This document shows positions 4,441 to 56,252 of a stretch of 64,000 nt of DNA, piece by piece. The stretch is from contig JANJGN010000049.1 in NCBI GenBank assembly GCA_026770705.1, forward strand, positions 1,302,001-1,366,000, given 5' to 3'. The number at the start of each line of letters is the position of its first letter. The first letter of the stretch is position 1. Below the pieces are notes generated by a model that saw only the letters and a list, made by a program, of their open reading frames with translations, made no database searches and was not told where the DNA came from. A program made the position numbers and the translations under genes. Source of the DNA: Isurus oxyrinchus. Its lineage: Eukaryota.

Positions 4441-6754
4441 CTGATGAAGGTTTAAAATACATAACTGCCATCCTCGTTGTCTTGCTACATGACATTTTCA
4501 TCATCTCCGCTACATAATTGGATGCCAGGTGTTCCAGCCTGTTGTATTCCCTTTTCACTTTCTTGTAACAGCTTGATCCGACTTCATGGTTTCCTGGGTC
4601 ACTTCAGAGGGAATTTCAGATTCAACCACATTGCTGTGGATTTGAAGCTGCATCTAGGTCAGAACAGGTATGGACGGTTAATTCCCTCCCTTACATAACA
4701 TTACATAACCAGAAGTTTTCTTTTTATGGCAATACTGACATAAGTACGGAGATGAGTTTCAATTATTTTTTCTGTTTATTAAATAATTGAATTGAAATTC
4801 CACCAGCCACCTGTGGTGGGCTTTGACCCCGTGCTCCCTAAGCATCAGTATGGCGTTCGGTATTAATGGTTCACTTTTTTACATTTCCACTCCACCACCA
4901 TTTCCCCAAATCCCAGTGACTCGAGACACCAAACCAGATTCATTGTGCTTTGTGACAGGGTGGTGAGCGTTTGTGTTTCTATCTTATTTTGTAGCCCAGT
5001 CATTGCCTTATTGTAAGGTTTGAGCTGAAATTTTTGACGTGAAGCGCCTTGAGCAACTTAAAGGTTCTGAATAGGGTGAGTTGGTGACACCTGTCACAGA
5101 AATTGAACGAATAAAAATTAAAATGATTGTTATTTGATAGAAAATGCTATAATAGTCTGTTTTAGGTTTTTCAAAAGTTTTCTTTGTGAGAATGGTAACA
5201 CTGATTAAGACAATTTTTCAATTACATCATTTAACATTAAGGGAACAGGGCAGTTGTTCCCTTAGGAGTTCTTTAGAAAAATGACGAAGTCAACCAGATC
5301 TTCTCATGAACGCCTTTAAGGCAAGAAGTGCTCATTTCTGAGTAATCTTTACATGGTGTAACCATAAAATCGCCTTACTCAATGAAATTATTAGATATGA
5401 ATGAAATCAATAGCAATATTGCCAAAAAAAAATTCAATCACTCTTAACTCCAGCAATGGTGGGGGCAAATAAATGACAATAAATGATTGTGTTTTTTTTT
5501 CCACAATAAAATCACACCCTCTGCTGTTGTATTATATGATCTGAAATGAATGATTATTTACAGGACCGGGAATTAAGTAATGGAAAATCACGGGAAAGTG
5601 TGGTAAATTGCTGGATCAGGAACCCACGCATTAACAACGTGGAAATACTTGGAACCTCTGTGACAACATTACAAATTGAAAGGTAGATATTCCAATCATC
5701 GAAGACTAAAGGAAATCATACCGAAATCAGGGAAAAGATAAGCCAGAGACATTCATGGATAAATATATAAAATTAAAGAATAGAAAATATATGACAGTGC
5801 TCTTTCAGGATGCAGTGTACAAAGGGGAATATCCAGCAACTCTATCTATCAGGAAAATCAGGGATTGTATCAGAGATTATGTCAGAGCTTGTGCAAGAGA
5901 GCATGTACTGGAGTTCCATCTATCAGGAGATCAGAGATTGGGGAATAGAGGATGTCCAGGAGTTCCATCTATCGGGAAGCGGTCGAGGTCGCAGCTGGAG
6001 GAGTTCTATGCGTCTGGACCAGGTGAGTTTTTTCATCCATACCTGCCCCACCCCTCCTAAATTTAAATTCGTTTCAAAATGGAACAGAATAGTTCTACTG
6101 GTTTCAATTGATTTGAAGTGAGGACGGAATAATAACATTATAGGAAGTCATAGGGTATGTAAAAATTGTGCATTGTTTGGTACAACGCAATTATTTGAAA
6201 GACTTGAATGACAATGTACCCAAGCAGTCGCAAATCTCTAGGGCATAATGAGGGGTGAGAGATGACAGTTCTGAAAAGACTTAACAGGATTTGTTTTTCA
6301 TTAGAGGTCTGGAACTGATAAAGGTGAAAAAATGGACATTCAATATCTATAAGGTTTTTAAGAAAGAAAACAAATGTGGTTTGGTTTCTCTGATCTGCTA
6401 CGGGAGGGAAGCTTCGTGCCACTGTTCAGGATAATTTAATGCAATATTAAGATCAAATAATTTTAGGGTCTGGGGGTTGATGAAATGGTTGTGGAGATGT
6501 GTTAACAGAGGATCAACTGAATCTGTTATTAGTCAGAGTGCATGAATTAATTTAACAAAAGAGATTTAGGTTAGTTGGTTTTGGGAAGCAGGACATTCAA
6601 AGGTTTCATTCGAGAAATTGCCTTAGGTTCCATGGTGCTCTTGTGGTTGTGGAGCCACTGAGAGGACATGTTCGATTCTCGGTCAGCTGAGCGCAACTCG
6701 GCTCAAGAAGATATTTGGAATCTTTCTCTTTGTTAGACGAAGCATATAATGTAA

Positions 6755-7335
6755 GATAGAAGGGTAAATACTCGAACTGTATAAAGCATTCTTTAGGCCA
6801 CAAGTTGAGAACTGTGTGCAGTTCGGGCCACGTCATTGCAGAAAGGGTATAATTGCACTAGAGAGAGTCCAGGGGAGATTTATGAGGATGTTGTGAAGAC
6901 TCTAAAACATGCAACTAAGAGGAAATGTTTGATAGGCTAAGATTTTTCTCAATGAAACAAGGAAGGCTGAGGGGAGGTTTGATTGAGATGTACAAAATTG
7001 TGCAGGATCTTGATAGAGTGCATAGGGAGAGCATATTTACCTTAGCAGAGAGCTAAGTGACGAGAGGACGTACCTTTGAAGCAATTGGCAGAAGGATTAG
7101 AGGGGAGTATAATGAATTTCTAAAACCAGAGGTTAGTGGTGATATGGAAATCACTGTCTGAAAGGGTAGTAGATGCAAGGGCCCTCAATTCATTTGAATG
7201 GTGCCTGGATATGCACATCAAGCACTGTAACCTGCAGGGCTACGGGCCAAATGCTGGGAAGTGGGATTAGGATGGATGGCTCATTTTTTTGGCCGGAGCA
7301 AACACGATTTCTGTGCTATAAATTTTCTGCGATTT
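6755..7335 (+). mobile_element. CR1 LINE 3' fragment
   Basis: Decayed LYK-L-RPQ-E-CVQF / LERVQ-RF / RLRG-LIEMYKI motifs and 3' UTR. Confidence 0.8.
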
Positions 7336-7999
7336 GATGAAAAATACTAGTTTTTGAGCAGAAACATGCTGTTCTTTCATGCTTGTCCCATTGATGCCAG
7401 GCTCGTCAAGGCCAAATACATCTTGTGATAAATAGGCAATTTGACTTTCTAATATTGTGCATTTTGATTGATAGGTACAAACATGTTAATGAGAATAATT
7501 CTATTATTTTATTGGGACCAACTGATTTGCTCTCACGGGGCCTGTGGGACCACATTGTTTCCTTCGATGTTATATCAATTTTATTCCATGACAAAATTAC
7601 AACATGGATTTCCAATTCAGCATTGGAAATGCAGCGTTTCCCCTTAGTTTTGGTAAATTCACGGGGGTAGAATGACTTGCTTCAAGATTGTGTATCTCTA
7701 ACTCTGAGGCAGTGAAGCGCAAAGTCTTCCCACTTGTCTGTATTGAAGAGGGAATAAGAAGTACATTCTAATCGAAGAGGCACAGGGGGGAAGGAGAGGA
7801 GGAGAGCGGCGTTGGGGGGCGGGGGGTGGCGGGGAACGTGGTGTTGCAGTTGGGCGGGGAGGAGTTCGTGGAAGGGGAAAGGCTGCTCTGTTGCTTCTGT
7901 GCAGTGGTGCCCTCAAGAGATTCGACACTTCAACCTAGCGATGTAGCGATGATTGAAATTTCCCTTATTATCCAAAACTCGCTCATTATTTTCACAGAA

Positions 8000-8350
8000 T
8001 CACAGAATAACACAAAGCAGAACAGGCCTTTCGGCACATAGAGTCTGCACCGACATGAGATACAACTGACCAACCTACTTAATCCCATTTTCCAGCACTT
8101 ATCCCATAGCCTTGAATGCTATGACGTGCCAAGTGCTCATGCATGTACTTTTTAAAGGCTGTTAGGCAACTCGCCTCCACCACACTCCCAGGTAGTGCAT
8201 TCCAGATCGTCACCACACTATAGGTAAAAAGGTTTTTCCACACAACCTCCACCCGTCCCCCCCTAAACCTCCTGCCCTTCACCTTGAACTCATGTCCCCT
8301 CGTGACTCACCTTTCAACTAAGGGGAACAGCTACTCCCTATTCACCTTGG
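8000..8350 (-). mobile_element. CR1 LINE 3' end
   Basis: FTYSVVTIWNALPGSVVEASCLTAFKKYMHEHL. Confidence 0.8.
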
Positions 8351-43727: not shown

Positions 43728-44262
43728 TGTTGTGGAAAAACAGAGCGAACACTCAGACCCAGGAGGTTTGTCTTGGAAGCCTTTTATTATAATCGTGATA
43801 TCACAGAGAGCCCAACAGCATAGAGCAGAGCTAGCCGGCACTCTAACTAACACCGCTTTACACACATAACTATAGCAAAAGGTTCGTGACAGAAACTTGG
43901 GCAATTACAATAGTTTCAAATGGTTTCAAAGGATAGCGATCAGTGTTAATGATTTAACGTTTAGACACGACAATGTCAATGGTTTAGCAAATAGAAAGGA
44001 CAACGTCGATGGTTCAACAAATACATAGTGTTAATGGTTACATATTCTGGACAATGCACACACAATAGTTTTTTTCTCTTAGATTTTGCCACCGTATCTG
44101 ACATCCGGAGCCCCTTAGTCTGGGAAGGTAGCACTGGCTCTTTGATTTGCTAATTTATGTGCTGGCTGTGTGACTGTTTGGGGACATTCTACAGTAATTT
44201 CATTATACCTGTATTTTTAGTTTTTTTCTCTCACAAGTATAGATGTATTTTATTCTTCAACA
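43728..44262 (-). repeat. ERV 3' LTR (about 535 bp)
   Basis: TGTTG...CAACA termini; preceded on the minus strand by the purine tract AACAAGGAGGGGT; its end matches 53698-53735. Confidence 0.85.
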
Positions 44263-44279
44263 ACCCCTCCTTGTTAATC

Positions 44280-45287
44280 TTTTAGATTAATCACATCTTC
44301 ATCATCAAAAGGGGGCTCATAACCATAAGGAAAAGGCCAATCACTGGCAGGGTAAACTTTTTCTCCCCACCAGTGGGTTTCACTGGGGCCAGTGCGTATC
44401 AATTGAGGGACAAAGGGAGCTCCTCCTAATCCAGTGGTGACTCCAGTCATAGCTCCATTAATACACTGGATACAGCAAATCCTCATAGTAGCACATGCAC
44501 AACACCCTATAACACCTAATAAAACTAACCCAATTAAAACATACAGCAGCTAACTTTCCCAACTGGAGAACCACTCCGTTACTGTAGCCCGCCAGGAATC
44601 CTTGTTATAAACACTGCTCAACCTTTCCCCAACTTTCTTTATTTCTCACACTTTATCCATAACATGCTGTTCCAGGTCAGTAATATTCTCAGAAACATCA
44701 GGCACATAGGCGCAGCATTCTGAGCCTATTATGGCACAAGTGACACCTTTTTCAGCTAGGAGGAAATAAAGGGCCATTCTATTTTGTAGAGCTGTCAGGC
44801 ATAGGGCTAACATTTCAGCAGTGGTGGCTGAAATCTGTTTCTGGGTCTCAATAAAAGCATCAGCTGTCGAATTGGCAAATTTTTCAAGCGCAGCTGCCAG
44901 GTTGATAACCTCTCGGGAGTTACGCACAGTTCCATAAGAGGGGATAGCAATCATCCAGCATTGTTTAGATTTTGAGATGTCACGGCGATGGAGACGCAGA
45001 TGCTGGTGAATATCTGATGCTATAGGGCTGCCGGACGAGTGACTTGGACCCAATCTTCCTTCCCTTTAATCTTCAGGGCTGTACAAGTTGTTAGCAGCAC
45101 AAGATAGGGTCCTTTCCACTCTCTCATGCAATCCAGCTGTTGTTTTGCATTGAGGAAAATGAGTACAAATCCAACATTCAGTCCGATGAACTTGCAAGGC
45201 TACGGCCTGTATTCGTTGAACCACAGAATTGGTATTCCATGCCCCTGCAAGGACCACGCAGGACAGGATCCAAATCAGAGTCAGCAT
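44280..45287 (-). pseudogene. env: Gamma-type retroviral env with an internal SU deletion
   Basis: Signal peptide MLTLIWILSCVVLAGA, CWIC motif, furin-like RLHRR, immunosuppressive domain LQNRMALYFLLAEKGVTC, CX6CC (CAIIGSECC) and a hydrophobic TM segment near 44560-44490. Confidence 0.9.
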
Positions 45288-45333
45288 TCCGATGGCTCAG
45301 TTAAAGTTCTTGCACAAGCACTTCCGTCCGAGG

Positions 45334-45990
45334 TCAGCGTCTGTTTGACATGCGATGTGTGGATCCACAAGTGCATCCTTCAAGCTTCACGGCTGTATGG
45401 GTGGTGAGCTGGACTTGGAAAGGTTCTTCCCATCGAGGTTCCAAACAGTTCTTTCTACTGAAGGTCTTTACCAGGACTAGGTCCCCGGGCTGGTATTGAT
45501 GGCAGTCTTCAGTGGTGGGCTTTTTCTGAGCTTCTACTACCTGTATATGCGAGCTCTTGAGATAGTTAGTATGAGAGCGCATAGTCATGAGCGCCAAGGG
45601 TAGAGCTTCAGGCCCTTTCAAACTGGTTTCTTCACATAATTTAGCTAGTTTGTTTTTCAGAATACCATTTTGTCCTGCCATCGCTCCAGTAGACCGGGGG
45701 TGGTATGGGCAGGAAAGGTGATGGTTGCATTGTAAGACCTTCAACAGTTCCTTTATCACGTCAGCAGTAAAAGGAACAACAATTTTACAACAACAGCATC
45801 ATTGCGTTGGGTGGGATATGCCTCCACCCATCGCAAGAACAAACACACTAGAATTAAAACATAATTATATCCCGTACATTTAGGCATTTGTATAAAGTCC
45901 ATTTGTAGGTGTGCAAATGGGCCCCAAGGCTGGGGTCCCGTACCAGCAGTCACGGTGGGCGTCTTACCTGGGTTATGTCCTTGACATAGG
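45334..45990 (-). pseudogene. pol: Epsilon/gamma-like retroviral integrase fragment
   Basis: CQGHNPGK, PWGPFAHLQMDFIQMP, RWVEAYPT, CPYHPRSTG..QNGILKNKLAK, PGDLVLVKTF..LEPRWEEPFQV..TTHTAVK; internal deletions and frameshifts. Confidence 0.88.
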
Positions 45991-46326
45991 TATGACAGGT
46001 ATTACTAATATAATTACCTGGAAAAACTCAGCAGGTCTGGCAGCATCGGCGGAGAAGAAAAGAGTTGACGTTTCGAGTCCTCATGACCCCTCGACAGAAC
46101 TTGAGTTCGAGTCCAAGAAAGAGTTGAAATATAAGCTGGTTTAAGGTGTGTGTGTGGGGGGCAGAGAGAGAGAGAGAGAGAGGTGGAGTGGGGGTGTGGT
46201 TATATGGACAAACAAGCAGTGATAGAAGCAGATCATCAAAAGATGTCAACAACAATAGAACAAAAGAACACATAGGTGTTAAAGTTAAAGTTGGTGATAT
46301 TATCTAAATGAATGTGCTAATTAAGA

Positions 46327-48828
46327 ATGGATTTCTCGGACTGCTGTTCCCGTCACATTCTGAAATCCACACTCAGTGCCATGTGCCGCCATATGAACAC
46401 ACTCGACCTCTCCCTCCAGCAGCACCGCCGTACCCTTTTTCAAAGCTGCGCGTGCCCCCAGTTTCATTTTATCCTTCGGCTCATCCAACGCCTCAACAAG
46501 AAACTTTTTCTCTTTCTCTCAAATACTAAGGAACGCAAGCTCCAACAACTCATCGACACCAACACCCATCTAGGACCCTCCACCCCGGCCTGTCCCTCCG
46601 TCCCCACCTCATCTTCCAATCCCAACCCCAGCTGTGTATTCACTATACCCCCTGACCTTCCCCTCTCCAATGCTGAACGTTCAGTGCTCAGCAAAGGACT
46701 TAGTTTCATACCCTTACGCCCTCAACTCAATGAATTTCGGGCTCGGCATGATACTGAACTCTTCTTCCGCCGTCTTCGTCTCCGGGCTCACTTCTTTGAT
46801 CAGGAGTCCTCTCCCAGTTCAACGGATCCTTTTACCCATCTCCAATATTCTCCCTCCACCTGGACCCCTCCCTCTGGATTCTTACCTTCTCTTGATCTTT
46901 TCATTGAGAACTGTCGGCGCGACATTAGTCGTCTCAATTTCTCTGCTCCTCTCACCCATTCTAACCTGTCTCTCTCTGAACTTACTGCACAACATTCTCT
47001 CAGGTCCAACCCTGACATTGTCATCAAACCCGCTGACAAGGGTGGTGCTATTGTTGTCTGGCGCACTGACCTCTACCTCGCGCAGGCTGAGCGTCAACTC
47101 GCAGACACTTCCTCCTACCTCTCCCTGGACCATGACCCCAACACTGAACATCAAGCCATTGTTTCCAGGACTGTCACTGACCTCATCTCCTCTGGGGATC
47201 TCCCTCCCACAGCTTCCAACCTGATAGTCGCCCAACCTCGGACGGCCCGCTTCTATATCCTACCCAAAATCCACAAACAGAACTGCCCCGGTAGACCGAT
47301 CGTCTCAGCTTGCTCCTGCCCCACAGAACTCATTTCTCGTTATCTTGACTCCCTTCTCTCTCCCCTTGTCCAGTCCCTTCCCACCTACATCCGTGATTCC
47401 TCTGACACCTTACGTCACATCAACAATTTCCAGTTCCCTGGCCCCAACCGCTTCCTCTTCACCATGGACGTCCAATCCCTCTACACCTCCAACCCCCACC
47501 AGGATGGTCTAAGGGCCCTTAGCTTCTTCCTCGAACAGAGGCCCGAACAATCCCCATCCACCACTACTCTCCTCCGTCTGGCTGAACTTGTTCTCACGCT
47601 GAACAATTTCTCCTTCAACTCCTCTCACTTCATCCAAATAAAAGGTGTGGCTATGGGTACCCGCATGGGCCCCAGCTATGCCAGTCTCTTTATGGGGTAT
47701 GTGGAACATTCCTTGTTCCAGTCCTACTCTGGCCCCCTTCCACAACTTTTTCTCCGGTACATCGATGATTACTTCGGTGCCGCTTCATGCTCTCGTCGGG
47801 ACTTGGAAAAATTTATTAATTTTGCTTCCAATCTCCACCCCTCCATCATTTTCACGTGGTCCATCTCTGACACTTCCCTTCCCTTCCTTGACCTCTCTGT
47901 CTCAATCTCTGGTGATAGACTGTCCACCAATATCCATTACAAACCCACCGACTCCCACAGCTATCTCGACTACAGCTCCTCACACCCCGCTTCCTGTAAG
48001 GACTCCATCCCATTCTCTCAGTTACTTCACCTCCGTCACATCTGTTCCGATGATGCTACCTTCAAAAACAGTCCTTCTGACATGTCCTCCTTCTTCCTTA
48101 ACCGAGGTTTTCCACCCACGGTCGTTGACAGGGCCCTCAACCGTGTCCGGCCCATCTCCCGCGCATCCGCCCTCACGCCTTCTCCTCCCTCCCAGAAACA
48201 TGATAGGGTCCCCCTTGTCCTCACTTATCACCCCACCAGCCTCCGCATTCAAAGGATCATCCTCCGCCATTTCCACCAACTCCAGCATGATGCCACCACC
48301 AAACACATCTTCCCTTCACCCCCACTATCGGCATTCCGTAGGGATCGCTCCCTCCGGGACACCCTGGTCCACTCCACCATCACCCCCTACTCCTCAACCC
48401 CCTCCTATGGCACCACCCCATGCCCACGCAAAAGATGCAACACCTGCCCCTTCACTTCCTCTCTCCTCACCGTCCAAGGACCCAAACACTCCTTTCAAGT
48501 GAAGCAGCATTTCACTTGCATTTCCCCCAACTTAGTCTACTGCATTCGTTGCTCCCAATGTGGTCTCCTCTACATTGGAGAGACCAAATGTAAACTGGGC
48601 GACTGCTTTGCAGAACACCTGCAGTCTGTCCGCAAGAATGACCCAAATCTCCCTGTCGCTTGCCATTTTAACACTCCACCCTGCTCTCTTGCCCACATGT
48701 CTGTCCTTGGCTTGCTGCATTGTTCCAGTGAAGCCCAACGCAAACTGGAGGAACAACACCTCATCTTCCGACTAGGCACTTTACAGCCATCCGGACTTAA
48801 TATTGAATTCAACAACTTTGGGTCATGA
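46327..48828 (+). CDS. Penelope-like reverse transcriptase plus GIY-YIG endonuclease (833 aa, probably 5'-truncated)
   Basis: IKPADKGG, FYILPKIHK, GRPIVS, FTMDVQSLYT, GVAMGTRMGP, RYIDD, PFLDL; Cys-rich linker; NLVYCIRCSQCGLLYIGET; C-terminal LGTLQPSGLN. Confidence 0.93.
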   Translation: MDFSDCCSRHILKSTLSAMCRHMNTLDLSLQQHRRTLFQSCACPQFHFILRLIQRLNKKLFLFLSNTKERKLQQLIDTNTHLGPSTPACPSVPTSSSNPNPSCVFTIPPDLPLSNAERSVLSKGLSFIPLRPQLNEFRARHDTELFFRRLRLRAHFFDQESSPSSTDPFTHLQYSPSTWTPPSGFLPSLDLFIENCRRDISRLNFSAPLTHSNLSLSELTAQHSLRSNPDIVIKPADKGGAIVVWRTDLYLAQAERQLADTSSYLSLDHDPNTEHQAIVSRTVTDLISSGDLPPTASNLIVAQPRTARFYILPKIHKQNCPGRPIVSACSCPTELISRYLDSLLSPLVQSLPTYIRDSSDTLRHINNFQFPGPNRFLFTMDVQSLYTSNPHQDGLRALSFFLEQRPEQSPSTTTLLRLAELVLTLNNFSFNSSHFIQIKGVAMGTRMGPSYASLFMGYVEHSLFQSYSGPLPQLFLRYIDDYFGAASCSRRDLEKFINFASNLHPSIIFTWSISDTSLPFLDLSVSISGDRLSTNIHYKPTDSHSYLDYSSSHPASCKDSIPFSQLLHLRHICSDDATFKNSPSDMSSFFLNRGFPPTVVDRALNRVRPISRASALTPSPPSQKHDRVPLVLTYHPTSLRIQRIILRHFHQLQHDATTKHIFPSPPLSAFRRDRSLRDTLVHSTITPYSSTPSYGTTPCPRKRCNTCPFTSSLLTVQGPKHSFQVKQHFTCISPNLVYCIRCSQCGLLYIGETKCKLGDCFAEHLQSVRKNDPNLPVACHFNTPPCSLAHMSVLGLLHCSSEAQRKLEEQHLIFRLGTLQPSGLNIEFNNFGS

Positions 48829-49222
48829 GCTCCATCCCCCATCCCCACCCCCTTTCTGTTTCCCCCTTCCTTTTCTTTTTTTTCCAATAAATTATATAGA
48901 TTTTCCTTTTCCCACCTATTTCCATTATAAAAAAAATAAAAAAATCTCCCCACCCCCACTAGAGCTATACCTTGAGTGCCCTACCATCCATTCTTAATTA
49001 GCACATTCGTTTAGATAATATCACCAACTTTAACTTTAACACCTGTGTGTTCTTTTGTACTATTGTTGTTGACATCTTTTGATGATCTGCTTCTATCACT
49101 GCTTGTTGGTCTCTACAACCACACTCCCACTCCACCTCTCTCTCTCTCTCTCTCTCTCTCCGCCCCCCCACCCAACACCTTAAACCAGCTTATATTTCAA
49201 CTCTTTCTTGGACTCGAACTCA

Positions 49223-49261
49223 AGTTCTGTCGAAGGGTCATGAGGACTCGAAACGTCAACT
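49223..49261 (+). ncRNA. Minimal type I hammerhead ribozyme-like motif in the Penelope pLTR (variant core)
   Basis: AGTT-CTGTCGA-AGGGTC atgag GACTC-GAAAC-GTC-AACT: stem I AGTT/AACT, stem II, GAAA and palindromic ACGT. Related copies carry the canonical CTGAAGA or CTGATGA core. Confidence 0.55.
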
Positions 49262-49341
49262 CTTTTCTTCTCCGCCGATGCTGCCAGACCTGCTGAGTTT
49301 TTCCAGGTAATTCTGTTTTTGTTTTTGATTACTAATATAAT

Positions 49342-50245
49342 GCCTATTAGCATATTACTATTTACTATACATTCTCAACATTCATTCTAAATACACGTGT
49401 TAAACTCTTGATCTGGCAAGCGGTCAAGTCATGATTCCTGTGTTGTGAGAGATTCAATAAATGCTTATTAGTTACCCATAAAGGGACAACCCCATTTTTA
49501 GTCTGTCTTAAATTTTCCCGGGCTTGTTCCAGTGCCCAAGATCCATAGGTGTTGTATACATCATTTCTGCTCGCTTCGTCTGAAATATTTTTCGCTATTT
49601 CAATTAATTTATTGATAGTCCCCGCATGACTTTCGACCATGGTAGCAAGGCTTTGGATTAATCAATGATGTCCCTATATTGATCATTGTAGCGGCATCAT
49701 TTATCAGGCTGCACTTAATGCGGTTCCCTCCCAAGCCTGATCGCATCTCGCCACTGAACTGAACTGCTTCAGTCATCAACTGGCGCGTCAGAGCCGTATA
49801 GACTGCTTGGGTATGGGTTGAGCACCACTGGGGCAAGATTACACCGGATACATTCAAAACTACGGGTACCGGCTCATGGTGTACATTATCATACAAAATT
49901 TCTGATTAACCAGTACCAAACCAATCGTCGGTCCTGGATGCATAGTCAGACAAGCTGGATCAGTTGGTGTGGTTTAAGGGGCTGCAATTATCTCTACTCG
50001 GACTGTGAAAGTAGGGGTGGGAGGTGGCTGGGTAGTGGCGGACCTCCCACGCTCGATCTGAAGCAAACCCTTACTACAATTTGAAAGCACTTGTTCTCCT
50101 ACTGTTACATTTATCATTCCCCATTGCGTGTTGCATTCGGCACTGTCCATGCTGTACCAAAGTTCCTCCTGTGGTGCAGGATGAGCAGTGATGATCCCCG
50201 ACCTTGTTGCCAGTACTGACACGCCCACGACCTGGATCATAGATC
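49342..50245 (-). pseudogene. Second, non-gamma env-like (class I fusion protein-like) gene, 5' portion
   Basis: ORFs 50240-49974, 49896-49609 and 49640-49365 join across stops and frameshifts. They show an N-terminal hydrophobic start, N-glycosylation sequons, a decayed furin site RIK[C<R] followed by fusion-peptide-like SLINDAATMINIGTSLIN, a helical region, GVVPLWV and LIGIILVIPVI. Located directly after an integrase C-terminus. Confidence 0.6.
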
Positions 50246-50299
50246 TGTGGAGATATTAACATTGGCTCCCTTTCTGTGGGTTACCGCTTGGTCAATTGT

Positions 50300-51450
50300 C
50301 ATGTATCTTTAACTGTGTGTAATGCCTCCGTTTACTTCCTGTTCTCATATCTACAAGCGCGCGTGTATCACCTGGCATAATTACCTGGTATGGTCCTTGT
50401 TGCTCCGAGTTCACCCTAGCCATCACCTTATTTCCCCACTTGGGGGGTCCTTTGTTGCTCCTTGGATTTGCCTGTTTCCATATCGTTAATAATCTGTCAG
50501 TCTCTAACTTCCTCTCTCAACTCATGTAATTGCCGACTTAATTCCCTTACATTGTCCTGTATTTTTCCCTTCAGTGGCCCTACACCTCCTATAATGCCTT
50601 CAGGTAATCGCATGATCCTTACCTGTTATCATTTCAAATGGGGTGAACCTGTCGGTCCTGCTTGGGGTAGCCCACAGTTTATTATAATATCGGGCTGTTC
50701 CCTGTCTCTTGATTGATGTTTTTTTTTAAAGTTCAGTTCATCCTTTCCACCATCCCTGGACTCTGGGGGTGGTAAGGAATATGGAATTTCTGTTTAATCT
50801 CCATAAAATTACACACTTCTTTAATGACTCTCCCTGTGAAGTTAGTTCCCTGATCTGAACCCATTTGGATAGGCACCCCCACTCCTTCCAGTTTACTCTC
50901 TCCTGCTGCTGTCTCATGTCAGACCTCAATTCCTTAAACAACTCTACAGTGCACCTTCTTATCCTATCTTTCAATGGCTCAGTATCTTCGCTTCCAGTGA
51001 TGGTTCTCTCTGGGAACCGCTTAACTCTGCCTGTCATCAAGGTGTTAATCCTATGGTTTTACTCTTTGTAGCTTGCAGGCACATTAATATAATCAGTAAT
51101 ACATCTATTTAGCCTTTTTCCAGCTTTCCATTTACCTGTATCCATCTTGTGGTAAATTGTTGTTAAGTATTATTTCTCCTTACATTTCAATTCCTGAACT
51201 ACAGATTCCTCATAGTTTTACCTCTAACTTTTCTTTCCTGACCATGATCATCCTAAGGTTCTCTTGAGTTCAGTTTCTCTATTGACTTGATTGTTTAAAA
51301 TGGTTCCTTACTCTTTAAGCCATATTAACTATTCAGTTTCAACGGGGATCTCTGTCTCTAGATCTTTGCTTATCTCCCCCTGTGCAGTTCCAATGCCTCA
51401 GTTGATGGCCAGATTATCAAATTCATTTCCCTTAAAACAGTTTGTACATT
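50300..51450 (-). pseudogene. pol: Degenerate pol remnants: RNase H end plus two divergent integrase C-terminal segments
   Basis: GNEFDNLA near 51420; IDVLLIILMCLQATKSKTIGLTP/LMTGRVKRFPE near 51110-51010; KLWATPSRTDRFTPFEMITG/RIMRLPEG near 50680-50590; QGPYQVIM..RRHYTQLK near 50400-50305. Confidence 0.7.
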
Positions 51451-52759
51451 ATGTCCTCGTTCACTAACTCATTCTCCTACTTGCCTCATACCATATTACA
51501 CTTGCAACAGCTACCATCTTATCTTGTTCAGGTTGCCTGGAGAGACTTTAAAATGAATAAAACATTCTCATAACAGCTTTAAAAACAGAAATCAGGTATT
51601 GATATGTTTTGCTTCCTTTTCTTCTTCTCAAAGATTTTATTGTATTAAAAGTAACCCACTAAGTTGTGTCTGACCCTTTTCTTTTAGAATTATCCCAGAT
51701 TCATTAACTCGGACAAAAATTGGATTTCTGCCAAACTTTGTCAAGGTCTTGAGCTTAGCTTCATATTTTGGGAACAGACTTATAAATACAAAAGCTTGCA
51801 GCATTTGAATCAGTGCCAATTGTTGTCAGACCTTTTAAAATGAAAATTCCCTTTTTGAGAACTTTATCTAGAACCAAACCTCAAATTTTTAAACTTTGTA
51901 AGAACTGTAATTTACACTATCAAAATTAAAACAACCTCTTTTTCATGTGTAATGATTTGCATCCAAGTTATAATTTCCGTATGTTTATCGACACTTCTTT
52001 ATCTTAGATAGCATCCTAGTGATTCAAAAGTAACCTGTTAAATTACAGTGCACTTTACATCTCAAGATTGTCCCAAATTCAAATTACAGTGCTTTTGGAA
52101 TGCAGATTTCCTTTAATATTTAATTCTTCCCTTCATAAGAAACCCCTTTTTATCCACTGGAACCACCTAGACCTTGTGTTTATGTCTTTTCATTTTCCTA
52201 GAATCCTTTTGAATTTCAAGTAATTTCCTTTTTCTCAGAATTTTAGAATACTAGCTCGTATGTATTAATCCCAGTCAGCTTGGAACCTGATGATGAGGGT
52301 TATTCCCTACTAGTCTGCAAGGGGGTGGTACAAGGGTTGGTTCATCTCAAACAAAGGCAAGCCCTGTTTTATCTTTACACTACCTTCAAATTACAATTTT
52401 TGCCAGAAATCTCAACTCAAACCTTATACTCAAAACTTTGGAATGTTTGAATAAACTTTACCTTTAATCTAATATGGGGCTTTCAACTCTAAAGTGCTCA
52501 ACTACACACACAAAAGGCAATTCAGGTAAGAAAACATGTTAAATCTCACATGCAAATGCTTCATTGCACACAAACAAACACATAGATAAAGGTATGTATC
52601 AATACTCCTATAATATTGATCTTAACTTTAAACGAAGCTTCGAGTAGCAGTGGGAGAACAAAGGGATCTTGAAGGCTCCACCTAGAGGGACCTTCAAACT
52701 GACAAAAGCTCACATTTTCTCTGCTGCTGCTTGTCAATTGCTTATTAACCCCTTGAGGT

Positions 52760-52790
<31 letters not shown>

Positions 52791-53676
52791 TCAGCACAAA
52801 CAGCTCTTGTAACTTAGCTTAATTCATTTTTTTAAGTTATAGAAAATTCAGTAGCGTTCTACCTACTTCCCTTAAAACATATTATAAGCACTCAAATCTG
52901 TTCTGATTAAAAGTTCCAGCTGGTGGGAAGCTCTCTCCTTTACTTTGAGTCCATTGAACCCAATAAGAAACATATTGGAAAATTTCAGGACCATAATGGA
53001 CAAACATATAAGCATTTGGCGTTCCCTTCAAAGGGGGAACCTGGGGTTTCTTTGATGTCATATTTCACATTTTATTTAATAATATACACAAAAGAAAACA
53101 CAGAAATTACTTACTTTTCACCTCCAGGGGACTCGAACCCCTGGATATACTACTACTGCTTTTTTCGTTTTCTTACCCATCTTCAAAGTTCCTAATTGAA
53201 GCTCCGGTTTCACTGGTTTCAGTTTGTTCTTAGTACTTTGAGAAGCGGGGGGAGTGGCAGGGCCCGCTCTGCTGTTGTGACCTCCCATTTTTCTGAAAAG
53301 AAAACAAAATTAACAGCGTGGCGCGTTTTGCTACCCTATGCGCTCACCGGTGTTTAAGAGTTCCTTAACAAGTCCTCCAGTTCCTTGGGTTTTTTTGAGT
53401 CCGATCGGTAGATACCCATTTTCAAGCAATCCTCCTTTCAGCTAGGATGCTTTTCGTCCCCATTTCACCTCTCCAACTTAAGAGGTAGCTGGGATGCTAT
53501 TTAACTGCACTCCCCCTTTCAGCTAGGATACAGTTCGTACTCTCCCCAACTTAGGAGAGTCTCTCCCTTTCTCCGCGAGGGTTCTTTTTCAGAGATCTGA
53601 CGGTCCAAGTTTTCAATTACCTCTCCAACTTAAGAGGTTACCTCTCCAACTTCAGAGGTCACAGGACCTCAGTCGG

Positions 53677-53735
53677 AACCCACCTTCGTCACCAAATTGT
53701 TGCGGAAAAACAGAGTGAACACTCAGATCCAGGAG
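53677..53735 (-). promoter_or_regulatory. ERV primer-binding site (tRNA-Ser GCT-like) and U5 end of the truncated 5' LTR
   Basis: TGGTGACGAAGGTGGGTT lies 3 nt after the LTR-terminal CAACA. It is complementary at 16/18 to the vertebrate tRNA-Ser(GCT) 3' end as I recall it (ATCCCACCTTCGTCGCCA). Confidence 0.75.
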
Positions 53736-54740
53736 AAAAACAGAATTACCTGGAAAAGCTCAGCAGGTCTGGCAGCATCAGCAAAGAAGAAAAGAGTTGA
53801 CGTTTCGAATCCTCATGACCCTTCAACAAAACTAGGTGAATTCAAGGAGAGGGGTTAAATATAAGCTGGTTTAAGGTGGGGAGGGGGGGTGGGTTTGGTG
53901 GGGGGGGGTGGGGAGAACTGCAGGGGGGTGGTGTGATTGTAGTGAAGCAGCATTTCACTTGCATTTCTCCCAACTTAACCTAATGTATTCGTTGCTCCCA
54001 ATGCAGTCTCCTCTACATTGGAGAGACCAAACGTAAACTGGGCGACCGCTTTGCAGAACACCTGTGGTCTGTCCGCAAGAATGACCCAAACCTCCCTGTC
54101 GCTTGCCATTTTAACACTCCACCCTGCTCTCTTGCCCACATGTCTGTCCTTGGCTTGCTGCATTGTTCCAGTGAAGCCCAACGCAAACTGGAGGAACAGC
54201 ACCTCATCTTCCGACAAGCACTTTACAGCCTTCCACACTGAATATTGAATTCAACAACTTTAGGTCTTGACCTCCCTCATCCATCCCCACCCCCTTTCTG
54301 TTTCTTCCCCCTTCCTTTTGTTTTTTCCAATAATTTATATGGACTTTTCTTTTCCCACCTAGTTCCATTATTTTTAAATCTTTTATGCCCCTCCACCACC
54401 ACTAGAGCTATACTTTGGGTGCCCTACCATCCATTCTTAATTAGCACATTCGTTTAGATAATATCACCAACCTCAACACCTCTGTGTTCTTTTGTTCTTA
54501 AGTCTGTGACATCTTTTGATTATCTGCTCCTATCACTGCTTGTTTGTCCCTACAACCACACCCCCCCTCCACTTCTCCCCCCACCCCCCCCCACCTTAAA
54601 CCAGCTTATATTTCACCCCTCTTCTTGGATTCAACCAGTACTGCTGAAGGGTCACGAGGACGCGAAACGTCAACTCTTTTCTTCTCTGTCAATGCTGCCA
54701 GACCTGCTGAGTTTTTCCAGGTAATTCTGTTATTGTTTAG
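53736..54740 (+). mobile_element. 5'-truncated Penelope copy with inverted pLTR, truncating the ERV 5' LTR
   Basis: Inverted arm 53736-53941, then the GIY-YIG C-terminus (LYIGETKRKLGDRFAEH) and pLTR, closely similar to 48498-49320. Confidence 0.88.
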
Positions 54741-55279
54741 CATTTATTACCCATCCCCAGGTAAGGGCAGCAGGTTTCCCTCCGTAAAGGACATTAGTGA
54801 CCCAGATGGGTTTTTACAACAATCTCGAATAGTTTCATGGTCACCATTGGACTTTTAATTCCAGATTTTTTATTACATTCAAAATCAATAACATTGTGGA
54901 TCCTGTCAAAGTCCTGGTTCAGTTGTAAATATATAAAATCCCTCTCCTTCCTCCTGCACTTCCCACCCACTCCCCACTCACCCCCCACCCCCCGCCACCC
55001 CCTCCACCGCCCACCCACAGCCTCCCTCTCTCTCTCTCTGCCTCTCTACATAGAGGCCAGGGTCTCGTGTAGGCCTTGACTGGGTTGCAGGTTCCCTTCC
55101 CTGAAGGACATTAGTGTACCAGCTGCTTATTTATGACAATCCAGCAGTTTCATGGTCACTTTTTCCTCATGCTGGCCCCACAAATGACCAGATTCATTCA
55201 GCTCAATTTCACAACCTGTCTTTGTGTTTTTGTGGGTTCTCTCTCACTCCCTTTTTTCTGTTTTAAATCAATTTCACAG

Positions 55280-56252
<973 letters not shown>

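Follow-up and report, generated by a model that had tools for sequence, protein, structure and literature searches.

A nested mosaic family of non-autonomous endogenous retroviruses in the shark Isurus oxyrinchus, likely built by successive captures of helper ends

How could a single endogenous retrovirus (ERV) come to carry integrase (IN) and envelope (env) segments from distant retroviral lineages between long terminal repeats (LTRs) of one type? This question was raised by an element on the minus strand of Isurus oxyrinchus DNA, at positions 43728–53735 of a 64,000-nucleotide (nt) stretch (GenBank assembly GCA_026770705.1, contig JANJGN010000049.1, 1,302,001–1,366,000) that is referred to here as the window. 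The original prediction, made from the letters alone, described a chimeric ERV that had been reverse-transcribed as one unit. We found that the mosaic is a real multi-copy family, neither a one-off nor a misassembly, with the nested layout P3[P2[X-P0env]P2]P3, in which P0, P2, and P3 are families bearing a reverse transcriptase (RT) and X is a core of the RT-less element P1. It is likely that this non-autonomous family arose in two successive steps, each a double template switch with a co-packaged helper retrovirus.

The mosaic as a dispersed family

Searches of the shark's own genome with the LTR and the two internal halves of the element gave 507, 1452, and 396 first-look candidates, respectively, and the best 40 of each were scored. 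Forty loci were retrieved, comprising 8 segmental duplicates of the window insertion with shared flanks and 32 dispersed copies with approximately 85–93% identity, in which the two halves were contiguous or were separated only by Penelope pieces of their own. Among 36 mosaic loci, the internal junctions J1, J2, and J4 were present in 32, 33, and 32, respectively, and the two sides of J3 adjoined in 29 and were separated by Penelope in 4. J1, J2, and J4 were present in none of 52 donor or precursor loci, and J3 in none of the 37 tested. The original prediction had proposed a search for copies with the same junctions and had held that junctions unique to this locus would speak against it; the junctions proved common to 29–33 of the 36 mosaic copies, at dispersed sites. 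A 22-nt motif over J4 had 129 matches in the genome versus 1 for the reversed control, and 27 of the 100 matches listed lay on contigs holding segmental duplicates; these counts indicated at least approximately 100 dispersed copies.

Eight complete copies had unrelated flanks, LTR pairs with 92–98% identity, and 5-bp target-site duplications (TSDs), which were perfect in seven copies and matched at four of five positions in one. The automatic finder of LTRs and primer-binding sites (PBSs) was unsuccessful for 17 of the 35 mosaic loci, and the TSD result refers to these eight copies, which were checked by hand. The features by which reintegrated mosaics are recognized in the available part of PMC4724089 were observed here, namely a number of copies sharing one internal mosaic, all in sense orientation and with different flanks, and, in the complete copies, an identical LTR type at both ends with no third, internal LTR. 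The common junctions, paired LTRs, and 5-bp TSDs, together with the distant donor RTs described below, bore out the prediction that the mosaic was copied as one non-autonomous unit after recombination of distant lineages. A locus-specific pile-up or a misassembly would suit the private damage at the window locus, which has a Penelope insertion and a lost 5′ LTR, but this explanation was refuted, and is left with practically no probability, by the recurrence of these junctions on many contigs, at dozens of sites, and by contigs from independent sequencing runs that cover the join of a deletion in the env surface subunit (SU) and the 45120–45153 region. For the two 5′ junctions, the support consisted of the assembly copies. 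No RNA run was among the sequencing runs listed as containing the query stretch. Runs under two organism labels contained this stretch at the same share (approximately 0.35), and the family may predate a species split.

Donor families and layers of the element

Protein searches with env1, the gag matrix (MA) stub, env2, and env3 identified 56 more loci, and an RT search identified 10 more. P2 (16 loci, 15 with RT) had gag, pro, pol, and env, an LTR of its own (455 bp), and a tRNA-Gln PBS, and it matched the window only at 53163–52863 and 45989–45153 (gag-MA and IN-C/env2). P3 had the LTR type of the window, a tRNA-Ser(GCT) PBS, and the leader, followed by its own pol and then by the IN tail (45152–45035) and env3; P3 loci matched the window only at the LTR, leader, IN-D, and env3. 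P1 (12 loci), an element without RT, matched 52856–45981 and had, beyond this, a complete env1 and an LTR of a third type. The PBS of P1 was a third sequence, different from those of P2 and P3 and putatively of the Ser(AGA/TGA) type. P0 had RT, and its LTR, gag, and env1 were common with P1 at 77–91% nt identity, but it was without the middle of P1. This middle, core X, consisted of IN-A and IN-B, both nearest to P0, and a 1.7-kb stretch that matched none of the sequences tested. Five loci, designated S1, represented an intermediate, P2[P1]P2, and the S1 locus with a clean LTR pair (L068) had a P2-type LTR and a Gln-type PBS. The LTR and PBS were swapped at each stage, the LTR being of P2 type in S1 and of P3 type in the window family (S2), and the three LTR types had no mutual similarity. 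P0, P2, P3, P1, and P2[P1]P2 are separate families in the same genome. Internally deleted copies of P2 and P3 (L083 and L105) were also found, and in the leaders of some P2 and S1 copies (L071, L072, L081, and L069) the P2 leader unit that forms J1 was expanded to long tandem arrays of approximately 45 bp.

The RT of P0 was 26–34% identical to those of P2 or P3, and the P2 and P3 RTs were 42–49% identical to each other. P2 RT scored 282 bits to murine leukemia virus (MLV) versus 121 to foamy virus, whereas P0 RT scored 84 and 82 bits, respectively; since the latter scores were nearly equal, P0 is not clearly class I. An MLV-type IN C-terminus (MLVIN_C) was present in both IN-C and IN-D. On these sequence comparisons, P2 and P3 pol can be classed as class I (gamma/epsilon-like), the P3 RT being placed only through its identity to that of P2. 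Full-length env2 was gamma-type (TLV_coat, 3.4e-8), and env3, also gamma-type, matched TLV_coat (6.6e-7) and syncytin-1 (2.5e-8); longer env3 copies such as L015 had the SU CXXC motif and, in the transmembrane (TM) subunit, the immunosuppressive domain (ISD) and CX6CC.

Env1 did not class as gamma-type by ISD, CX6CC, and a TLV_coat match, no Pfam env match being obtained for a relative of 727 amino acids (aa). Word-indexed protein searches were empty, searches of PDB sequences gave only chance matches, and a full HMMER scan gave 42 relatives, of which the ten examined were from sharks, rays, and frogs where named. The natural 727-codon env frame of L051, with 80–87% nt identity to the window stub, was modelled with a mean predicted confidence (pLDDT) of 62, and 40 of the 40 PDB matches listed were F proteins of paramyxoviruses or pneumoviruses (best E, 1.9e-11); the model also matched baculovirus F and the env of walleye epidermal hyperplasia virus. 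The predicted F-like P0 env had an RXKR site, a fusion peptide, a coiled coil, and a TM segment, a type of env that is not unique to the lokiretrovirus or snakehead-like clade. Env1 is thus predicted from the model to be F-like. L051 itself (contig C40, oriented 5960–8140) was a P0-type locus whose RT was frameshifted and whose terminal repeats agreed at only 82%, and it kept its env frame. Of its private env changes, 59% were at third codon positions; among 18 other copies, this share was 48% in the most divergent and 15–39% in the remaining 17. A host-maintained F-like env is possible, and the third-position excess could also stem from divergence as a virus. Two predicted proteins from sharks (P0008 and P0031), one annotated as FBXO15 and one as a cadherin-related gene, also contained env1-family sequence, which may be a gene-model artefact or exonisation.

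On the minus strand, the window element consisted of a 38-bp LTR end, the PBS, an internal part of 4.4 kb and another of 1.7 kb separated by a 3.3-kb Penelope-like element, the polypurine tract (PPT), and a 535-bp LTR. The outermost layer was of P3 type. The stub of the unique 5′ region (U5) at 53698–53735, adjoined by a Penelope fragment, matched the terminus of the 3′ LTR at 35 of 38 positions, as had been noted; the predicted matching LTRs therefore held for the ends and for the complete 3′ LTR (43728–44262, TG...CA), but the 5′ LTR was reduced to this 38-bp stub, so LTR pairing and a TSD cannot be checked at the window locus. The predicted serine PBS (53677–53694) matched tRNA-Ser(GCT) at 14 of 18 positions and matched fully in several family copies. 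It was followed by the P3 leader and the start of the first open reading frame (53160–53676, 64–82% nt identity to P3 loci), a piece that stopped approximately 33 nt short of the P3 splice donor, whose position was taken from L096. What had been read as one long leader comprised this P3 leader and also a P2 leader unit with the gag-MA start (52863–53163, 81–87% nt identity to P2 loci) and the decayed, AT-rich 1.7 kb of core X (51118–52856, approximately 80–86% to P1), which had no Pfam or tblastx match.

IN-A (50897–51117) was, as predicted, a separate post-core integrase segment upstream of IN-B; it belonged to a P0-related lineage, with 32–59% aa identity to P0 IN and no match to P2 or P3. 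IN-B (50292–50879) ran from half of the integrase core to the predicted GPY tail and was assigned to the same lineage by its tree, with a Pfam rve match of 1.7e-5; its core showed 50–70% aa identity to P0 versus 35–56% to P2 or P3, and its reading frame was interrupted by stops and frameshifts. A reading of IN-A and IN-B as one broken integrase was rejected, because IN-A is a post-core P0 segment yet lies upstream of the IN-B core and the two had no mutual DNA similarity. The RNase H remnant of the original prediction was not upheld (tblastn E = 0.14; profile score −4.5 versus a median of −2.8 and a maximum of 4.1 for shuffles). The 5′ part of env1, of P0/P1 origin, lay at 49328–50243 and continued at 46000–45981, with two internal deletions and a truncation. 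The 3′ part of the P2 layer comprised IN-C (45337–45989; class I; 84–92% nt identity to P2; Pfam rve and MLVIN_C; two internal deletions) and the start of env2 (45153–45287), 45 codons with the signal peptide and CWIC only. It was followed by the P3 IN-D tail (45035–45152; MLVIN_C, 3.9e-9), with a 104-nt intron-like gap between 45120 and 45119, by P3 env3 (44274–45018) with a furin site, ISD, CX6CC, TM, and tail, the SU part being absent in the sublineage of the window, and by the PPT (44263–44273), read from the sequence.

The predicted env-like gene 1, class I IN, PPT, and 3′ LTR were thus all present, but the integrase segments numbered four, with IN-D, instead of three, and there were three env starts instead of two env types. 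The motifs of the supposed single gamma-type env (CWIC, ISD, and CX6CC) occurred in two genes, CWIC in the P2 env2 start and ISD and CX6CC in the P3 env3. The absence of an RT core held for retroviral RT, which had no match within the window element or within the mosaic loci (a match in L022 lay in the flank), but an RT within the Penelope-like insert had been overlooked.

Formation of the mosaic and later history of the locus

The order of events could be read from lesions and trees. The join of IN-A to IN-B was present in 10 of 12 P1, 5 of 5 S1, and 34 of 36 S2 loci, the first env1 deletion in 8/12, 5/5, and 35/36, and the second env1 deletion in 0/12, 2/5, and 35/36, respectively. The trimmed form of J3 was found in 2 of 5 S1 and nearly all S2 loci, the IN-C deletions in none of 5 S1 and 31–33 of 36 S2 loci (one of them was also scored in 1 of 16 P2 loci), and the loss of env3 SU in 5 of 36 mosaic loci plus the window. 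Deletions were shared by 31–35 of the 36 mosaic loci, and such disabling lesions common to copies indicated that the family spread when already defective. Trees were made after removal of rows with less than 80% cover (3 for env1, 4 for IN2/env2, and 10 for env3). In the env1 tree, S1 and S2 formed one branch with S1 basal. Three of five S1 copies were interleaved with P2, and mosaic env3 tails were interleaved with several P3 subfamilies, a single origin being rejected (approximately unbiased test, p-AU 0.002), which indicated that the mosaic went on exchanging 3′ ends with P3. Identities of LTR pairs were 92–96% in P1, 87–96% in P2, and 96.5% (one pair) in S1, and overlapped with each other and with those of S2 given above, as co-activity requires. 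The shark rate given in the available part of PMC4422223, on which dates would depend, is an assumption.

The joins at the 5′ side lay just within the helper's leader or the beginning of its gag, those at the 3′ side lay in its integrase, and microhomology amounted to 0–5 nt. The ends bounded by these joins are the cis regions required by the Gag, RT, and integrase of the helper, which would explain why both ends turned over while stubs accumulated inside. At each step, an RT-less RNA would have been co-packaged with a new helper retrovirus, and the middle of the RNA would have been retained while the 5′ end (LTR, primer site, and leader) and the 3′ end (integrase tail, env, PPT, and LTR) of the helper were taken over. 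The captured ends were probably selected, as only the cis signals of the current helper would permit packaging, priming, and integration; the internal IN and env stubs would be unselected remains of earlier 3′ ends. Capture by P2, and then by P3, would have taken place atop an older layer, making the inner two envs passengers, and P1 itself may have arisen likewise, as P0[X]P0. Of the predicted alternatives of co-packaging or env exchange, the latter did not fit the layout, which consists of two nested captures that replaced both ends of an older layer; co-packaging is likely on indirect evidence, namely the microhomology, an intron-like gap, and the repeated env3 exchange, and is best supported for the last helper.

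Two observations concern an RNA stage. Thirty-two of 36 mosaic copies were without exactly 104 nt of P3 sequence, from GT to a polypyrimidine-AG that is the env splice acceptor of P3. In L096, and in one contig whose run of origin was guessed to be RNA, the P3 leader was joined to that same acceptor. The intron-like gap and the repeated exchange of env3 point to RNA passage and co-packaging, and we infer that the joins arose during reverse transcription. L096 (contig C21) contained tandem P3-derived units in which the leader was joined to the env acceptor, that is, copies of spliced env RNA.

Each layer might instead have formed in chromosomal DNA, by an older element lying in or beside a helper provirus with later deletion of the inner LTRs, and been copied as one RNA only afterwards. 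This route predicts the same nested layout, the short microhomologies suit end-joining, a non-virion route is allowed in the available text of the recKoRV paper (PMC6112702), and there were two single-sided recombinants, L050, with a P1 5′ end on a mosaic 3′ end, and L070, an S1 locus without J2. However, it requires two well-placed deletions per layer, twice over; remnants of P1- or P2-type LTRs were found neither in the window nor in any of 18 copies; and the joins lay each time just inside the helper leader or gag and the IN tail, with repeated exchange with P3. We therefore consider it unlikely. Slightly less probable still is that the mosaic was kept and spread as a supplier in trans of a working gamma-type env3, or briefly of two envelopes, and was not a passenger only. 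The same idea was proposed for Harlequin (PMC4724089, in the part available), env3 frames of 290–350 codons were kept in several copies, and the third-position share in mosaic env3 was 0.68 (n = 16, p = 4e-4). This bias may have been inherited from P3 via swaps, or env3 may have been used. Against a role in trans, the mosaic was without the leader donor and env acceptor of P3, env1 and env2 were truncated in all mosaic copies examined, and the sublineage without env3 SU still reached at least 6 sites.

Several points weigh against two template switches with co-packaged helpers, among them the env3 bias just described. DNA repair also makes microhomology joins, and a particle and a chromosomal origin of the first joins both fit. 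The gap began with GT in four of six P3 copies examined and with AT in the other two, and its 3 nt of flanking homology mean that RT slippage could mimic splicing. The loci were top matches and not a random sample, and they were grouped by labels drawn from the same BLAST data. Scoring of 150 of 6607 candidates, all 78–100% identical, revealed no donor for core X, and no contig among those listed from the independent runs spanned a 1.1-kb query stretch. The support of the env1 branch uniting S1 and S2 was 94/86, unstarred, and the fall in the third-position share of shared env1 changes, from 0.62 in P0 and 0.59 in P1 to 0.36 in mosaic S2, was borderline (Fisher p = 0.063). For gag-MA, IN-B, and IN-C, the sites were too few for codon-position tests to tell the groups apart.

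Successive captures from helpers nonetheless remained the likely course. A wider reading, to which we give an even chance, is that one parasitic RNA core outlived three successive helpers by re-skinning, that is, by replacing its LTR, primer site, and leader. It would have crossed from a non-class-I lineage with an F-like env to two class I lineages and shed the env splice signals of the last helper, staying a full-length packaging substrate, and its integrase-env stubs would be an ordered record of helper turnover.

After insertion, the window locus gained Penelope, lost most of its 5′ LTR, and underwent segmental duplication. The 3.3-kb insert (46014–49327, plus strand) is a locus-specific Penelope-like element, with a single 835-aa RT and GIY-YIG frame (46321–48828), terminal repeats including an inverted terminal piece, and a 13-bp TSD; the domain matches (RVT_1, 3.9e-5; GIY-YIG, 0.29) were both below curated cut-offs. 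The same env1 site (46001–46013/49328–49340) was entered by Penelope elements of varying length and orientation in five independent ERV copies (the window, L012, L015, L025, and L026), and other recurrent sites were at approximately 51520 (L018, L026, and L039) and 53000 (L019 and L029). These recurrences suggest that targets are preferred by sequence. Two older Penelope terminal pieces in mutually opposite orientation (53736–54745) lay outside the ERV and adjoined the LTR stub, and a frameshifted C2H2 zinc-finger exon (55400–56240, plus strand) lay beside the element. There were approximately 27 segmental duplicates of the window insertion adjoining a C2H2 zinc-finger exon. The duplicate on C49, the contig of the window, was 99–100% identical to the window insertion, and seven others retrieved (L032–L038; C38, C42, C100, C131, and C146) were without the whole 5′ half of the ERV. 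In five profiled duplicates, identity to the inner Penelope copy climbed, beyond 500 bp, from approximately 85% to 95%, the pattern that recombination of the inner copy with the flanking one should give. Apparently, the 5′ half was lost by Penelope-Penelope recombination, followed by approximately 25 duplications together with the zinc-finger region.

Relation to known systems and implications

The following comparisons refer to the parts of the cited papers that were available. The closest case is human Harlequin (LTR2-HERVE-MER57I-LTR8-MER4I-HERVI-HERVE-LTR2; Vargiu et al. 2016, PMC4724089), which likewise has several donors, with the LTRs and ends of one family around pieces of other ERVs. 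Harlequin proliferated after recombination, for which copackaging and polymerase jumps were held responsible, and, according to the paper, most such recombinants arose between related viruses of class I or of class II. Unlike in Harlequin, the core lineage of the shark mosaic had an RT only 26–34% identical to those of its helpers, no inner LTR was left, and donors and intermediates could be ordered. The koala recKoRV1 (PMC6112702) resembles the mosaic in having a helper 5′ LTR and gag leader, an older degraded element, and a helper env end and LTR, as well as microhomology breakpoints, TSDs, and many copies, but it represents one capture; in the shark mosaic, captures were stacked twice, and probably a third time, each brought a new PBS, and an intron-like scar was left.

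Lokiretroviruses (Wang and Han, PMC7947760) have an Env similar to paramyxovirus and pneumovirus F, as predicted for P0 env1, and the hosts given in that text include no cartilaginous fish; the likeness of P0 concerns the env model only, which the walleye epidermal hyperplasia virus env matches too. Elephant-shark CmiERV indicates that cartilaginous fish carry snakehead-like and epsilon-like ERVs (PMC4422223), env-pol recombination is frequent in anamniotes (bioRxiv 2021.11.23.469661), and env recombination is reviewed in PMC10536682. CmiERV and the anamniote ERVs with gamma-type env are pol-bearing products of single env swaps, whereas the shark mosaic is non-autonomous and has several envs. 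A full-text literature search, with subscription papers, Repbase/Dfam, and supplements outside its scope, found no description of the mosaic family.

Multi-donor mosaic ERVs are known; the new features here are a join across approximately 30% RT identity, stacking, PBS switching, and a preserved ladder of forms. Elsewhere, Harlequin-type assembly has been inferred from end products; with three donors, a precursor, and an intermediate surviving in a single genome, both the sequence of steps and the positions of the switches can be read directly here. Annotation of these elements gives three different answers, depending on whether it follows the LTR, the pol remnant, or env. If co-packaging took place, RNAs of retroviruses that differ in envelope class and have RTs approximately 30% identical can enter one particle and recombine, and a defective element can change helpers by exchanging its cis signals for new ones; env genes and other cargo could pass in this way between distant retroviral lineages. 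If the re-skinning of one core is also correct, the integrase-env stubs would be a stratigraphy of past retroviral activity in a cartilaginous fish.

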